64,000 nucleotides of DNA from Escherichia coli (GTDB lineage: Bacteria; Pseudomonadota; Gammaproteobacteria; Enterobacterales; Enterobacteriaceae), in assembly GCF_017348835.2 (NCBI RefSeq), contig NZ_CP071375.1, one strand, 5' to 3'. The notes below the pieces were generated by a model. That model worked only from the letters and a program-made list of their open reading frames with translations. It had not been told where the DNA came from and did no database searches. Each line of letters begins with the position of its first letter. The stretch's first letter is position 1. Of the stretch, positions 4,698-41,524 are shown one piece after another. The position numbers and the translations under genes were made by a program.

Positions 4698-6115
4698 TGA
4701 GCCAGTCACTGTTTAGCCAACCATTGAACGTTATTAACGTCGGCATCGCCATGTTTAGCGATGACCTGAAAAAGCAGCATGTAGAAGTGACTCAACTCGA
4801 CTGGACGCCGCCGGGGCAGGGCAATATGCAGGTGGTGCAGGCGCTGGATAACATTGCCGATTCGCCGCTGGCAGACAAAATCGCCGCCGCTAACCAGCAG
4901 GCGCTGGAGCGCATTATCCAGTCGCATCCGGTGCTGATTGGTTTTGATCAGGCGATTAACGTGGTGCCTGGCATGACGCCGAAAACCATTCTTCACGCCG
5001 GGCCGCCGGTTACCTGGGAAAAAATGTGCGGCGCGATGAAAGGCGCGGTCACCGGGGCGCTGGTGTTCGAAGGGCTGGCGAAAGATCTCGACGAGGCGGC
5101 TGAACTGGCGGCCTCCGGGGAGATCACCTTCTCGCCGTGCCACGAACACGACTGTGTGGGATCGATGGCGGGTGTTACCTCGGCCTCGATGTTTATGCAC
5201 ATCGTAAAAAACAAAACCTACGGCAACATCGCTTATACCAACATGAGCGAGCAGATGGCGAAGATTTTGCGTATGGGCGCTAACGACCAGAGCGTGATTG
5301 ACCGCCTGAACTGGATGCGTGATGTGCAGGGACCAATACTGCGCGACGCGATGAAAATTATCGGCGAAATCGATCTGCGCTTAATGCTGGCGCAGGCGCT
5401 GCATATGGGCGATGAGTGCCATAACCGCAATAACGCCGGGACGACGCTGCTGATTCAGGCGCTGACGCCGGGGATTATTCAGGCGGGCTACTCCGTCGAG
5501 CAACAGCGCGAAGTGTTTGAGTTTGTCGCCAGCAGCGACTACTTCTCCGGCCCGACGTGGATGGCGATGTGTAAAGCGGCGATGGATGCGGCGCACGGCA
5601 TCGAATACAGCACCGTTGTTACCACCATGGCGCGTAACGGCGTCGAGTTCGGCCTGCGGGTCAGCGGCCTGCCGGGGCAGTGGTTTACCGGCCCAGCGCA
5701 GCAGGTCATCGGCCCGATGTTTGCTGGTTATAAGCCGGAAGATTCGGGGCTGGATATCGGCGACAGCGCCATCACAGAAACCTACGGTATTGGCGGGTTT
5801 GCCATGGCGACCGCGCCTGCAATCGTCGCGCTGGTGGGTGGCACGGTGGAAGAGGCTATCGATTTCTCCCGTCAGATGCGCGAAATCACCCTTGGCGAAA
5901 ACCCCAACGTCACCATTCCGCTGCTCGGTTTTATGGGCGTGCCGTCGGCAATCGACATCACCCGCGTGGGTAGCAGCGGCATTCTGCCGGTGATCAACAC
6001 CGCCATCGCCCATAAAGATGCGGGCGTCGGCATGATTGGCGCGGGCATTGTGCATCCGCCATTCGCCTGCTTCGAGAAAGCCATTCTTGGCTGGTGCGAA
6101 CGTTACGGCGTCTGA
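4697..6115 (+). CDS. yahG: DUF1116-family protein (YlbE-like), 472 aa
   Basis: 472 aa ORF; start shares a base with the yahF stop region (ATGA-type junction). Confidence 0.8.
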   Translation: MSQSLFSQPLNVINVGIAMFSDDLKKQHVEVTQLDWTPPGQGNMQVVQALDNIADSPLADKIAAANQQALERIIQSHPVLIGFDQAINVVPGMTPKTILHAGPPVTWEKMCGAMKGAVTGALVFEGLAKDLDEAAELAASGEITFSPCHEHDCVGSMAGVTSASMFMHIVKNKTYGNIAYTNMSEQMAKILRMGANDQSVIDRLNWMRDVQGPILRDAMKIIGEIDLRLMLAQALHMGDECHNRNNAGTTLLIQALTPGIIQAGYSVEQQREVFEFVASSDYFSGPTWMAMCKAAMDAAHGIEYSTVVTTMARNGVEFGLRVSGLPGQWFTGPAQQVIGPMFAGYKPEDSGLDIGDSAITETYGIGGFAMATAPAIVALVGGTVEEAIDFSRQMREITLGENPNVTIPLLGFMGVPSAIDITRVGSSGILPVINTAIAHKDAGVGMIGAGIVHPPFACFEKAILGWCERYGV

Positions 6116-37505: not shown

Positions 37506-37525
37506 ATTGCGTTGCGCTCACTGCC
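37505..37525 (-). promoter_or_regulatory. lac operator O3 (overlaps the lacI 3' end)
   Basis: Reverse complement GGCAGTGAGCGCAACGCAATT; 92 bp from the O1 centre. Confidence 0.85.
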
Positions 37526-38600
37526 CGCTTTCCAGCCGGGAAACTTGGCGTGCCAGCTGCATTAATGAATCGGCCAACGCGCGGGGAGAGGCGGTTTGCG
37601 TCTTGGGCGCCAGGGTGGTTTTTCTTTTCACCAGAGAGACGGGCAAAAGCTGATTGCCCTTCACCGCCTGGCCCTGAGAGAGTTGCAGCAAGCGGTCCAC
37701 GCTGGTTTGCCCCAGCAGGCGAAAATCCTGTTTGATGGTGGTTAACGGCGGGATATAACACGAGCTGTCTTCGGTATCGTCGTATCCCACTACCGAGATA
37801 TCCGCACCAACGCGCAACCCGGACTCGGTAATGGCGCGCATTGCGCCCAGCGCCATCTGATCGTTGGCAACCAGCATCGCAGTGGGAACGATGCCCTCAT
37901 TTAGCATTTGCATGGTTTGTTGAAAACCGGACATGGCACTCCAGTCGCCCTCCCGTTCCGCTATCGGCTGAATTTGATTGCGTGTGAGATATTTATGCCA
38001 GCCCGCCAGACGCAGACGCGCCGAGACAGAACTTAATGGGCCCGCTAACAGCGCGATTTGCTGGTGACCCAATGCGACCAGATGCTCCACGCCCAGTCGC
38101 GTACCGTCTTCATGGGAGAAAATAATACTGTTGATGGGAGTCTGGTCAGAGACATCAAGAAATAACGCCGGAACATTAGCGCAGGCAGCTTCCACAGCAA
38201 TGGCATCCTGGTCATCCAGCGGATAGTTAATGATCAGCCCACTGACGCGTTGCGCGAGAAGATTGTGCACCGCCGCTTTACAGGCTTCGACGCCGCTTCG
38301 TTCTACCATCGACACCACCACGCTGGCACCCAGTTGATCGGCGCGAGATTTAATCGCCGCGACAATTTGTGACGGCGCGTGCAGGGCCAGACTGGAGGTG
38401 GCAACGCCAATCAGCAACGACTGTTTCCCCGCCAGTTGTTGTGCCACGCGGTTGGGAATGTAATTCAGCTCCGCCATCGCCGCTTCCACTTTTTCCCGCG
38501 TTTTCGCAGAAACGTGGCTGGCCTGGTTCACCACGCGGGAAACGGTCTGATAAGAGACTCCGGCATACTCTGCGACATCGTATAGCGTTACTGGTTTCAC
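37518..38600 (-). CDS. lacI: lactose repressor (GTG start, 360 aa)
   Basis: ORF 37518..38609; GTG at 38598-38600 gives MKPVTLYDVAEYAGVSYQTVSRVVNQ. Confidence 0.97.
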   Translation of the reverse strand: MKPVTLYDVAEYAGVSYQTVSRVVNQASHVSAKTREKVEAAMAELNYIPNRVAQQLAGKQSLLIGVATSSLALHAPSQIVAAIKSRADQLGASVVVSMVERSGVEACKAAVHNLLAQRVSGLIINYPLDDQDAIAVEAACANVPALFLDVSDQTPINSIIFSHEDGTRLGVEHLVALGHQQIALLAGPLSSVSARLRLAGWHKYLTRNQIQPIAEREGDWSAMSGFQQTMQMLNEGIVPTAMLVANDQMALGAMRAITESGLRVGADISVVGYDDTEDSSCYIPPLTTIKQDFRLLGQTSVDRLLQLSQGQAVKGNQLLPVSLVKRKTTLAPKTQTASPRALADSLMQLARQVSRLESGQ

Positions 38601-38670
38601 ATTCACCACCCTGAATTGACTCTCTTCCGGGCGCTATCATGCCATACCGCGAAAGGTTTTGCGCCATTCG
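38601..38670 (-). promoter_or_regulatory. lacI promoter (-35 GCGCAA, -10 CATGAT), embedded in the 3' end of the upstream regulator gene
   Basis: Reverse complement reads GAATGGCGCAAAACCTTTCGCGGTATGGCATGATAGCGCCCGGAAGAGAGTCAATTCAGGGTGGTGAAT, the classical lacI promoter sequence. Confidence 0.85.
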
Positions 38671-39590
38671 GCGGGGCTGACGCCGAAGTGAGATTTAAAA
38701 TGCTGACGCCAGGTCACAGGTGAGAGAAAACCCACCTCAGCCGCTATCCGCTCCACGGGCAACTGACTGGATCCCAACAGTTCCTGGCTACGGCGTAAGC
38801 GTTCAGTAATGAGCCATTCGGCGATACTCGAACCGGTCGCTTTCATAAAATGGCGAGTTAATGTGCGGCGACTCATCATTACTCGCTGCGCCAGCGAGTC
38901 GAGATCATGCTGTTGCGCAATGTTTTGCCGCAGGTAATCCAGCAGGAGATTAATGCGTTCATCAAGGGTATTTTTCGGCACTGGTTGCTCAATAAACTGC
39001 GCCTGACCGCCAGTGCGATATGGCGGTACGACCATCCGTCGGGCAATATGGTTAGCATAGTCGCTGCCAAAATGTTGCCGAACAATATACAAACAGCAAT
39101 CCAGCGCCGCGGCAGTACCGGCAGAGGTAATAATGCCGTCATCGTCTACGTACAACGCGTTAATATCCAGATGTGTTTGTGGAAAACGTGCCTGAAATTC
39201 ACGCTCGAACTCCCAGTGCGTGGCGGCACGCTTATTTTTCAGTAAACCTGCATAGCCGAGCACAAACGTGCCCAGGCAAAGCCCGACAATCTGTGCGCCG
39301 TTATCCCGTGCGGTCGTTAAGGCTTCCAGCAGTTTTTGTGGCGGTTTTTGTGTAATGGTTCCCCAGTAAGGAATTATCACAATATCTGCCTGGATGACTG
39401 CGGTATAGTCATGGGTGGCGGTTACGGAAAACCCATCGGCAGAGTCCACGTTTCCCGGCTTTTCAGCGCAGATAATTACGTGAAAGTGTTTTTTCTCCGC
39501 CATTTTTTCGCTAAATACGATAAACGGTACGGAAAGGTGAAAAGGACTAAAACCGGCAACGGCGATAATGGCAACAGTTAGCGGGCGCAT
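38637..39590 (-). CDS. DJ-1/PfpI-domain plus AraC-type HTH transcriptional regulator (GlxA/FtrA-like), 317 aa
   Basis: N-terminal DJ-1-like domain with the conserved Cys nucleophile elbow (QIVGLCLGTFVL); C-terminal AraC HTH (RRTLTRHF, SPAEWRKTF). Confidence 0.8.
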   Translation of the reverse strand: MRPLTVAIIAVAGFSPFHLSVPFIVFSEKMAEKKHFHVIICAEKPGNVDSADGFSVTATHDYTAVIQADIVIIPYWGTITQKPPQKLLEALTTARDNGAQIVGLCLGTFVLGYAGLLKNKRAATHWEFEREFQARFPQTHLDINALYVDDDGIITSAGTAAALDCCLYIVRQHFGSDYANHIARRMVVPPYRTGGQAQFIEQPVPKNTLDERINLLLDYLRQNIAQQHDLDSLAQRVMMSRRTLTRHFMKATGSSIAEWLITERLRRSQELLGSSQLPVERIAAEVGFLSPVTWRQHFKSHFGVSPAEWRKTFRGMA

Positions 39591-39609
39591 AACACTCTTT
39601 ATCTCCGAA

Positions 39610-40398
39610 TTAGAATGTCAACGTTTCACCATCTTCTGGTACGTTCACAAATTCGATAATTTGATTATCTCTGGCGTATTCCTTGAGCGCATCACGCGTC
39701 AGCAAACAGTGGTTTACGGCCTCCATATGTGTCGCGACAATTTGCGCTTCTGGCAGGGTAAAATGTGTTTTGAGAATATCTTCTGCTCCCATAATTATCG
39801 CGCCATGCCCCAGAACATGCGCAAATCCGGCATTCAACACAACCACTTCTGGTTGGAAAGTTAGCATTGTAGCCTCGACGTCGTCACGCCAGAGGGTATC
39901 GCCACCCAGATAGAGCGTTTTCTCTGTCGGGTGCTGGAAAACAACGCCGCAGGCTGCGCCTAAACGCTTCGCCATAGCCGGGTCGGCATAGGTGCGATCG
40001 GAGCCGTGCTGCCCTGTCGTTTTATGCAGAGTAATATCGCCAAATTTAGTCTCGTCGGTAAGTACGGTAAGATGCGTAAATCCTTGTTTATTCAGTGATT
40101 CAGCATCTTGCTCATTTTGCACATAAATCAGTTTATCTTTAGGGACGACGCGGGAGGCTGTTTCGTCCCAGTGATCTTCATGCAAATGGGTCACGATTAG
40201 GGCGTCAACGTTGAGTAACGTTGTTAAATCGCACGGTAATTCTACCGTTGGATTGCGGATTTCTGCGCGTGCCGTTCCGGCAAAACCCGGATAACTTCCT
40301 TTAGGCGCGAGTAACGGGTCGATAAGAAATGTTTTGCCAGCGTATTGGATAATTTGGGTGGCATTACGAATTTGCGTAATTTTCATGATTTGCTCCAC
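39610..40398 (-). CDS. metallo-beta-lactamase-fold hydrolase (262 aa)
   Basis: HxHxDH motif (THLHEDHWDE) plus downstream His/Asp ligands; 19 bp upstream of the regulator on the same strand. Confidence 0.8.
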   Translation of the reverse strand: MEQIMKITQIRNATQIIQYAGKTFLIDPLLAPKGSYPGFAGTARAEIRNPTVELPCDLTTLLNVDALIVTHLHEDHWDETASRVVPKDKLIYVQNEQDAESLNKQGFTHLTVLTDETKFGDITLHKTTGQHGSDRTYADPAMAKRLGAACGVVFQHPTEKTLYLGGDTLWRDDVEATMLTFQPEVVVLNAGFAHVLGHGAIIMGAEDILKTHFTLPEAQIVATHMEAVNHCLLTRDALKEYARDNQIIEFVNVPEDGETLTF

Positions 40399-40500
40399 AT
40401 CACAGTATTGATGTCATTAGCGTAGCGTGCAGCCCGTACTGTGCATGTGGGCAAATGGGCGAATAACGATGAGAATGGGCCAAATTACACATTGGCGTAA

Positions 40501-41334
40501 CTAGCGTAAATGCACGCCGCTTCGCCGTCCGGCTACCAGAATAGCCTGTGATTCAACCCCTTCTTCGATCTGTTTTGCTACCCGTTGTAGCGCCGGAAGA
40601 TGCTTTTCCGCTGCCTGTTCGATGGTCATTGCGCTCGCCATATACACCAGATTCAGACAGCCAATCACCCGTTGTTCACTGCGCAGCGGTACGGCGATAG
40701 AGGCGATCTTTTCCTCCTGATCCCAGCCGCGGTAGTTCTGTCCGTAACCCTCTTTGCGCGCGCGCGCCAGAATGGCTTCCAGCTTTAACGGTTCCCGTGC
40801 CAGTTGATAGTCATCACCGGGGCGGGAGGCTAACATTTCGATTAATTCCTTGCGTTCTTGTTCCGGGCAAAAGGCCAGCCAGGTCAGGCCCGAGGCGGTT
40901 TTCAGAAGCGGTAAACGTCGCCCGACCATTGCCCGGTGAAAAGATAATCGGCTGAAACGATGGGTGGTTTCGCGTACCACCATTGCATCAACATCCAGCG
41001 TGGACACATCTGTCGGCCATACCACTTCGCGCAACAGATCGCCCAGCAGTGGGGCCGCCAGTGCAGAAATCCACTGTTCGTCACGAAATCCTTCGCTTAA
41101 TTGCCGCACTTTGATGGTCAGACGAAAACTATCATCGGAGGGACTGCGCCGGACATATCCCTCTTCCAGTAACGTCTCCAGCAGTCGCCGCACAGTGGTG
41201 CGATGCAGACCGCTGAGTTCCGCCAGCAGCCCGACGCTGGCACCGCCTTCAAGTTTATTTAACATATTTAATAACATTAGACCGCGGGTTAAGCCGCGCA
41301 CGGTTTTGTATTCCGTCTGCTCATTGTTCTGCAT
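40501..41334 (-). CDS. mhpR: IclR-family activator of the mhp operon (277 aa)
   Basis: ORF 40501..41448; recognised start MQNNEQTEYKTVRGLTRGLMLLNML at 41334. Confidence 0.9.
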   Translation of the reverse strand: MQNNEQTEYKTVRGLTRGLMLLNMLNKLEGGASVGLLAELSGLHRTTVRRLLETLLEEGYVRRSPSDDSFRLTIKVRQLSEGFRDEQWISALAAPLLGDLLREVVWPTDVSTLDVDAMVVRETTHRFSRLSFHRAMVGRRLPLLKTASGLTWLAFCPEQERKELIEMLASRPGDDYQLAREPLKLEAILARARKEGYGQNYRGWDQEEKIASIAVPLRSEQRVIGCLNLVYMASAMTIEQAAEKHLPALQRVAKQIEEGVESQAILVAGRRSGVHLR

Positions 41335-41366
41335 ATTAATTGACATTTCTATAGTTAAAACAACGT

Positions 41367-41383
41367 TGTGCACCTGGTGCACA
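41367..41383. promoter_or_regulatory. MhpR operator palindrome TGTGCACCTGGTGCACA
   Basis: Perfect inverted repeat read directly in the mhpR-mhpA divergent region. Confidence 0.7.
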
Positions 41384-41524
41384 TTCGGGCATGTTTTGAT
41401 TGTAGCCGAAAACACCCTTCCTATACTGAGCGCACAATAAAAAATCATTTACATGTTTTTAACAAAATAAGTTGCGCTGTACTGTGCGCGCAACGGCATT
41501 TTGTCCGAGTCGTGAGGTACTGAA

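Follow-up and report, generated by a model that had tools for sequence, protein, structure and literature searches.

Two described systems lie closest to the pair of genes that separates mhpR from lacI in the 64,000-nucleotide stretch of Escherichia coli DNA analysed here (NCBI RefSeq assembly GCF_017348835.2, contig NZ_CP071375.1), which we refer to as the window and whose positions serve as coordinates throughout. One is SaxA, originally known from the sax genes of Pseudomonas syringae, and the other is O island 19 (OI-19) of O157:H7. SaxA converts an isothiocyanate to an amine and carbonyl sulfide (COS) (PMC7036374, PMC7303113), and the saxA family is widespread in Enterobacterales, falling into five clusters that all preserve its catalytic properties (PMC7036374). 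A further paper assigns the hydrolase to saxA and transcriptional regulation to saxC, and describes saxB as uncharacterised (PMC12903958). OI-19 is described in two reviews as a 1834-bp island with z0442 (ovrA) and z0443 (PMC8565820, PMC10877973); they state, citing Liu et al. (2020, J Infect Dis 221:820), that OvrA activates ler and has its binding site in the LEE1 promoter at GACATTTAATGATAATG. In the literature OI-19 is regarded as an acquisition specific to O157, whereas the evidence presented here speaks for ancestral presence and loss elsewhere, with a SaxA-type enzyme among its products.

We consider it probable that OI-19 is an ancestral two-gene operon, encoding a SaxA-like hydrolase and its cognate regulator OvrA, which has mostly been lost from E. 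coli and whose loss left the lacI promoter behind. On this view mhpR and lacI would already have been separated by the operon in the common ancestor of Escherichia and Citrobacter, and most E. coli lineages would have lost it later.

The mhpR-lacI interval carries O island 19

On the minus strand, where all genes of the interval lie, the order is mhpR, a gene for a metallo-beta-lactamase (MBL)-fold protein, a gene for a regulator with DJ-1 and AraC domains, and lacI, as read from the window sequence and its open reading frames (ORFs). The MBL-fold gene, the z0443/ECs_0400 orthologue (39610..40386; ATG at 40386, stop codon 39612..39610), encodes 258 aa with the HxHxDH motif in the form THLHEDHWD. 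After a gap of 19 nt (39609..39591) it is followed by ovrA, the z0442/ECs_0399 orthologue (38637..39590), whose 317-aa product ends in EWRKTFRGMA (printed ...SPAEWRKTFRGMA, followed by the stop). From the ovrA stop it is 36 nt to the GTG start of lacI at 38600 (lacI, 37518..38600). An earlier note, made from the letters alone, had described two co-oriented genes with a 19-nt gap, the HxHxDH motif and the DJ-1 plus AraC architecture, and all of these match the window sequence. Searches with Pfam hidden Markov models place HTH_18 (3.4e-19) and DJ-1_PfpI (3.2e-12) in the regulator and Lactamase_B_2 (1.3e-11) in the enzyme.

The module is the known OI-19, its regulator is the published OvrA, and the object itself is no discovery. 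Both proteins are 99% identical to their counterparts at the same position in O157:H7 Sakai (ECs_0399, the regulator, by tblastn, and ECs_0400), and some RefSeq records label the regulator gene 'ovrA: OI-19-encoded virulence regulator OvrA'. The interval holds two ORFs between lacI and mhpR, and its net size difference from K-12, 1824 nt, is near the 1834 bp given in the reviews. At the DNA level the window interval is 100% identical to that of the pig isolate PE164, 99.5% identical to that of an O145 strain and 99.0-99.1% identical to that of O157:H7. The same two genes thus occupy the same site as in the OI-19 of O157:H7 EDL933 and Sakai, the difference being that the window is not O157:H7. 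The whole interval is present, at 99-100% identity, in 435 of 5426 complete E. coli genomes (8%), Sakai included, and identity of this order across so many genomes reflects real homology rather than chance. With these matches and the two reviews, the module cannot be regarded as unknown.

The z0443 product as a relative of SaxA

The MBL-fold protein matches PDB 6BRM, 'metal-dependent isothiocyanate hydrolase SaxA' of Pectobacterium, over its full length (E 1.5e-87; residues 1-258 against 1-259), with 54% identity in the multiple alignment. The expected MBL metal ligands H67, H69, D71, H72, H127, D163 and H220 are invariant in this alignment, 6BRM included, so that the E. coli protein shares with the characterised SaxA its fold, the HxHxDH motif, the other ligands and its length. 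We infer from this homology that the z0443 product is a predicted isothiocyanate hydrolase, which would take R-N=C=S and water to R-NH2 and COS. The lactone, amide or small-aromatic substrate that the earlier note had suggested gives way to this strong full-length match. Two differences from SaxA should be kept in mind, namely that the E. coli gene is chromosomal at a fixed site and not plasmid-borne, and that the activity of its product is predicted only. Some Pseudomonas SaxA homologues have a signal peptide, whereas the E. coli protein has none. NCBIfam contains no specific model for the MBL protein, the nearest, metal-dependent hydrolase PRK00685, remaining below its cut-off, which explains the generic RefSeq name of the z0443 product.

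The protein might instead act on another substrate, be it another electrophile, an ester or lactone or an unidentified gut metabolite, with OvrA being mainly a regulator of virulence or of other functions whose effector is unrelated to isothiocyanates. We think this unlikely, because the identity of 54% extends over the full length of an enzyme of demonstrated activity with all metal ligands kept, and because activity is reported to be preserved in all five clusters of the family (PMC7036374). Furthermore, the same gene pair and the same type of upstream box (described below) are found in Pectobacterium, in which saxA has been proven to confer resistance to isothiocyanates. This has to be set against the occurrence of the family in many bacteria without a plant association and the suggestion of 'additional purposes' by the SaxA authors (PMC7036374), as well as the lack of a specific NCBIfam model, with PRK00685 below cut-off. 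A second PDB match, the solved homologue 3RPC, is labelled only 'possible metal-dependent hydrolase', and the reported target of OvrA is LEE1 and not z0443.

Shortened E. coli MBL proteins occur in public data (P0123, P0144 and P0219, of 222, 183 and 174 aa, respectively). One is flagged as partial by its source and short contigs may account for others; if the short forms are real, the enzyme gene is disrupted in some strains that have the module.

OvrA-like regulators accompany SaxA-like genes

The company that SaxA-like genes keep was counted in a scan with the SaxA alignment, using one genome per species and the best 80 loci listed. An OvrA-like gene stands beside the SaxA-like gene in 71 of these 80 loci. 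It is directly downstream and co-oriented, at 51-80% identity, in 60 of them, the genera being Citrobacter, Enterobacter, Klebsiella, Leclercia, Pantoea, Erwinia, Pectobacterium, Serratia, Vibrio, Marinomonas and Geomonas. An OvrA homologue of 43-46% identity lies upstream in another 11 (Pseudomonas, Stutzerimonas, Advenella and others), and the remaining 9, several of them at contig ends, show no OvrA-like neighbour. The Pectobacterium SaxA loci (L051, L055 and L056) resemble the E. coli locus in having both an adjoining GlxA-type regulator and a related upstream box.

In Pseudomonas the regulator is differently placed. In one Pseudomonas sp. locus (L071, 2507-6783) SaxA has a signal-like N-terminal extension of about 50 aa and is accompanied by an isochorismatase-family gene and by two GlxA-type regulators, one of which (ORF 4768..5757) lies directly upstream of it. 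Judged by this architecture and by the description of the sax genes in PMC12903958, the locus is probably a saxC/saxB/saxA cluster. SaxC of Pseudomonas would then resemble OvrA in being a DJ-1 plus AraC (GlxA-type) regulator beside SaxA, directly upstream in L071 and divergent in L081 and L089. It differs in its identity to OvrA of only 33-46% and in its position upstream of SaxA, as against downstream in Enterobacterales. From the pairing we infer that OvrA would be the cognate AraC-type activator of the SaxA-like gene, and its activation of LEE1/ler in enterohaemorrhagic E. coli (EHEC) would be a later co-option.

OvrA has the GlxA/FtrA-type architecture of an N-terminal DJ-1/PfpI domain with an elbow cysteine and a C-terminal AraC helix-turn-helix domain. 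Its best NCBIfam match is FtrA (NF006902), with 323 bits over residues 5-314; as the cut-off of 425 is not reached, OvrA shares the two-domain architecture of this family and is a relative of FtrA, not FtrA itself. The closest solved relatives of its N-terminal domain are isonitrile hydratases (InhA, PDB 3NON/6NI5; E 3e-13), and Cys105 of OvrA (GLCLG) aligns with their nucleophile-elbow cysteine, which we take to be the catalytic one, in agreement with the pattern G-x-C-x-G. InhA shares the elbow cysteine but works as an enzyme on its own, whereas in OvrA the domain is joined to one that binds DNA. None of the 71 regulators beside SaxA-like genes deviates at Cys105. Isothiocyanates are thiol-reactive electrophiles, and it is plausible that the DJ-1 domain of OvrA with its Cys105 serves as an electrophile sensor, the covalent or catalytic engagement of this residue being the inducing signal.

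A conserved box upstream of the SaxA-like gene

At 89-146 nt from the start codon of the SaxA-like gene, on its 5' side, about 50 of 81 loci from E. coli to Vibrio and Marinomonas share a box with the consensus tTGgCCCrATyyCATCG-N5-tGnCC-N4-gnCcac. In the window the box reads TTTGGCCCATTCTCATCGTTATTCGCCCATTTGCCCACAT (40445..40484, minus strand), about 60-100 nt 5' of the MBL start codon. A position weight matrix (PWM) built from the other loci gives it a score of 41.3, against 8.1 for the next best site on either strand of the 64 kb. Its loose core pattern turns up only 180 times on the two strands of 2.1 Mb of locus sequence. The box contains internal direct repeats (GCCCAT...GCCCAT..GCCCAC) and ends about 20 nt upstream of -10-like hexamers, for example TATACT in Pectobacterium and Pantoea, a layout as expected for the site of an AraC-type activator abutting the -35. 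By its co-conservation with the regulator the box is probably bound by OvrA.

In the region upstream of LEE1 in O157:H7 Sakai (L094) there is a weak match to the box, GTGTCCTAATTTGATAGATAAACGTTATCTCACAT (PWM 6.6), at about -121 to -82 from the ler ATG (locus position 40283), distinct from the published footprint at -201..-185.

The lacI promoter lies in the 3' end of ovrA

The classical lacI promoter, which we take, after Calos (1978), to consist of the -35 hexamer GCGCAA, a 17-nt spacer and the -10 hexamer CATGAT, is found in the window on the minus strand, with the spacing confirmed by counting. The -35 (38664..38659) falls inside the ovrA codons TGG-CGC-AAA (Trp-Arg-Lys), and the -10 (38641..38636) reaches from the last sense codon across the TGA stop (38639..38637) to the first base after it. 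The earlier note had placed both hexamers in coding sequence, which is correct for the -35 and in minor part wrong for the -10. From GAATGGCGC (-69, 38669) to GTGAAACCAGTAACG at the lacI start the window is identical to K-12 base for base; directly upstream of GAATGGCGC the two sequences part, as the same note had stated.

The retained 33 nt of K-12 (GAATGGCGCAAAACCTTTCGCGGTATGGCATGA) correspond to the last 33 nt of ovrA in the window (38637..38669, minus strand), where they encode EWRKTFRGMA and the stop in frame, and they form the core of the lacI promoter in K-12. The longer motif SPAEWRKTFR is common to nearly all of the 120 closest OvrA orthologues listed, with few single-residue variants, and these orthologues include Leclercia and Enterobacter genes in unrelated contexts without a nearby lac gene. 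As the K-12 promoter encodes in frame an OvrA motif that is present in orthologues far from lac, a match hardly attributable to chance, the promoter derives from an ovrA gene. Citrobacter sedlakii (L018) has the order mhpR-MBL-ovrA-lacI-lacZ with the same overlap of tail and promoter (GAATGGCGAAAAACCTTTCGCGGTATGGCATGATAGCG), and lac genes adjoin the pair in all 12 Citrobacter species loci. On this sequence evidence, what textbooks show as the K-12 lacI promoter is a fossil of the ovrA 3' end, in an arrangement that Citrobacter shares.

The classical lacI transcript begins about 28 nt 5' of the GTG. The earlier note had proposed that lacI expression here depends on read-through or occlusion from the upstream operon; in strains with the module, lacI would then be set mainly by transcription entering from the operon, or be lowered by occlusion, and its own promoter would matter less. 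The two genes are co-oriented, the lacI GTG follows the ovrA stop after only 36 nt, and no terminator-like hairpin was called between ovrA and lacI on that strand, which makes read-through possible; operon transcripts can, as far as the sequence tells, probably enter lacI. The consensus scan for promoters and terminators behind this result called nothing on the relevant strand and missed even the known weak lacI promoter, and is uninformative here. A dominant role for read-through or occlusion is nevertheless improbable, as the promoter is base-identical to that of K-12 from -69 to the start codon and the topology is not special to this strain, K-12 likewise having a co-oriented gene, mhpR, 76 nt upstream of lacI. 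Most likely lacI fires from its own unchanged promoter, with read-through possible but not required.

A probably ancestral operon, lost at least twice

Besides the full module, two further states of the locus are found among the complete E. coli genomes. The short K-12-type mhpR-lacI junction is present in 4460 of 5426 (82%), and its gap of 76 nt agrees with the figure of under 100 bp given in the earlier note. In 487 (9%), among them UTI89, Nissle 1917 and E2348/69, lacI is accompanied by a 99-nt pseudogene remnant of the ovrA 3' end and by yaiL, and mhpR to mhpT are missing; we label these genomes B2-type after the phylogroup that we assume for the named strains. The remnant represents the last 99 nt of ovrA (38637..38735, minus strand), is identical to the window up to 38735, and marks a deletion of window positions ~38736 to ~49418, about 10.7 kb. 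Because B2-type genomes keep this fragment beside lacI, a lineage that now lacks the module must once have carried it. The gap takes away the 5' part of ovrA, the saxA-like gene, mhpR, mhpABCDFE and mhpT, joining lacI and the remnant to the region upstream of yaiL.

Between E. coli and Citrobacter the proportion of nonsynonymous differences (pN) is 0.13-0.15 in both genes and that of synonymous differences (pS) 0.68-0.80, values which indicate that both genes are functional and under strong purifying selection. Together with the conserved motif, the B2 remnant and the gene order of C. sedlakii, this makes the 'O island' an ancestral feature, with at least two independent losses. The common short form would have arisen by removal of about 1.82 kb, from just past the mhpR stop to just 5' of the lacI -35, and the B2-type loss of about 10.7 kb would be a separate event. 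The deletion scar that the earlier note had read into K-12 is thereby borne out: the conserved OvrA C-terminus persists in the retained 33 nt, C. sedlakii has the ancestral order, the B2 remnant is independent, and an alignment to K-12 and other E. coli genomes finds the genes in only 8% of the complete genomes and the tail in exact register with the K-12 promoter. That OI-19 was instead acquired horizontally and inserted into the O157/phylogroup-E lineage, with the K-12 arrangement ancestral and the overlap produced by an incoming ovrA recombining with the pre-existing promoter, is very improbable: its presence in only 8% of complete genomes, the stress of the saxA literature on horizontal transfer and plasmid carriage (PMC7036374) and the Citrobacter lacI genes separated from ovrA, whose tail-homologous promoter begins only at about -68 so that a lacI unit starting near -69 exists independently of a full ovrA, would suit such an origin, but the B2-type remnant already contradicts it, and the in-frame EWRKTFR of the K-12 promoter, with its counterpart in orthologues that have no lac neighbour, the exact gene order shared by C. 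sedlakii and the lack of any integrase, transposase or island-typical repeat within the 1.83-kb module (ORFs and sequence inspected) also speak against it.

Endpoints of the short-form deletion

The left edge of the module is the TAG stop of mhpR (40503..40501). From this stop to GAATGG there are 1831 nt in the window and 7 nt (CACCATC) in K-12, from which the net difference of 1824 nt follows. A short direct repeat, CGCC(G)AATG, is present at both edges on the minus strand, as CGCCAATG on the left (40497..40490) and as CGCCGAATG at the deletion endpoint on the right (38673..38665), and is a candidate microhomology for the short-junction deletion. Recombination within the repeat is predicted to give TAGTTACGCCGAATGG, and the junction allele of E. 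coli W, O121:H19 and others, TAATGCCGCCGAATGG, matches this product at 13 of 16 bases; this W-type allele was seen in at least 30 listed genomes, a lower bound, as partial matches blur the identity bands. Recombination between CGCCAATG and CGCCGAATG is, on these matches, the likely mechanism of the short-form deletion. The right endpoint is 5 nt upstream of the lacI -35 hexamer. Since the lacI promoter sits in the ovrA tail, surviving deletions presumably kept that tail, and those reaching past it would presumably weaken lacI expression and be selected against.

Five changes, each of them a transition, distinguish the K-12 junction allele, TGACACCATCGAATGG, from that of the W type. These fall within 10 nt (TGACACCATC in K-12, TAATGCCGCC in E. 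coli W, O121:H19 and others), and the flanks differ far less (L002 1631-1640 compared with L090, E. coli OkiPb01692; window 40490-40503 and 38665-38676). A search inside the module for GACACCATC and its sub-words, made to explain the K-12 junction, gave no match on the relevant strand.

The mhpR gene occupies 40501..41334 on the minus strand in its 277-aa RefSeq form. Its longest ORF has 315 aa (ATG at 41448; 40501-41448), as in the Sakai annotation, and the RefSeq PGAP start is at 41334; this is a discrepancy in annotated starts only.

Variants of the lac region in Citrobacter

In the Citrobacter freundii complex (L004, 6955-7743; L010-L012, L014, L017, L019 and L020) a methyltransferase gene of about 200 aa is found and the ovrA tail is present twice, and in Citrobacter youngae (L015) only about 110 nt of the methyltransferase insert are left. 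A longer relic of ovrA 5' of the Citrobacter lacI was looked for and rejected, as homology stops at about -68 and the next 40 nt are identical at 8-12 of 40 positions, against a mean of 14.3 for a best-of-offsets null. Three further Citrobacter loci (L013, L016 and L021) have no lacI orthologue between the pair and lacZ. Of these, L016 is also without ovrA; L021 has an ovrA that aligns in two segments, which points to a frameshift or disruption.

Discussion

Several observations weigh against an ancestral operon for a SaxA-like enzyme and its cognate regulator. With regard to the enzyme, 54% identity to SaxA is no proof that the E. coli protein has the same substrate, and according to the two OI-19 reviews (PMC8565820, PMC10877973), which call z0443 of unknown function, its deletion gave no virulence phenotype. 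With regard to the regulator, isothiocyanate failed to induce saxC of Pseudomonas viridiflava and raised saxA expression only to a slight extent at the time point sampled (PMC12903958). The published OvrA site of LEE1, GACATTTAATGATAATG, at -201..-185 of the Sakai ler ATG, was considered as a copy of the box and rejected, as it is AT-rich where the box is GC-rich and scores -17.7 with the PWM; OvrA would have to recognise two dissimilar sites, unless the box has another binding partner. With regard to the history of the locus, the best 80 genome matches listed contain no Escherichia species besides E. coli, which is a weak argument. Most Citrobacter genomes have an opposite-strand methyltransferase gene between ovrA and lacI, with lacI still carrying a degenerate copy of the tail/promoter, in which 12-19 of 25 nt are identical in the -35 to -10 part and identity is at chance level further upstream. 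Finally, the K-12 junction decamer TGACACCATC has no good match to either module edge, and the deletion may have been one event or several. Taken with the evidence above, an ancestral operon of a SaxA-like hydrolase and OvrA, mostly lost and surviving elsewhere as the lacI promoter, is still the explanation that we regard as probable.

A more far-reaching proposal is that OvrA is an isothiocyanate sensor, in which modification of Cys105 by isothiocyanates from the diet or from plants would switch on the saxA-like gene through the box, and that in EHEC the same signal has been wired to LEE1/ler, with possible read-through into lacI. We offer this tentatively and think it unlikely.

In the literature searched we found no paper linking z0443 to SaxA, or the lacI promoter to ovrA. 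Within that literature three points appear new, which are the identity of z0443 as a SaxA relative, the pairing of SaxA-like with OvrA-like genes across many species together with a conserved upstream box, and the lacI promoter as the 3' end of ovrA in an arrangement common to Citrobacter. They are incremental, but useful and testable.

The lacI promoter, also as its lacIq derivative, is present on very many cloning vectors, and descent from the 3' end of ovrA may help to explain why this promoter is weak and non-consensus. For O157, OI-19 would be an ancestral possession that others lost and not a gain of its own, a link missing from the literature searched. As a SaxA homologue, z0443 would also provide OvrA with an obvious candidate signal, and O157 and related strains with a candidate trait of isothiocyanate tolerance. 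Allyl isothiocyanate and other isothiocyanates find use as antimicrobials in food. If OvrA does sense isothiocyanates, crucifer-derived compounds in the ruminant or human gut would directly tune attaching-and-effacing virulence, and the loss of the module from most commensal E. coli would mark a difference in niche.

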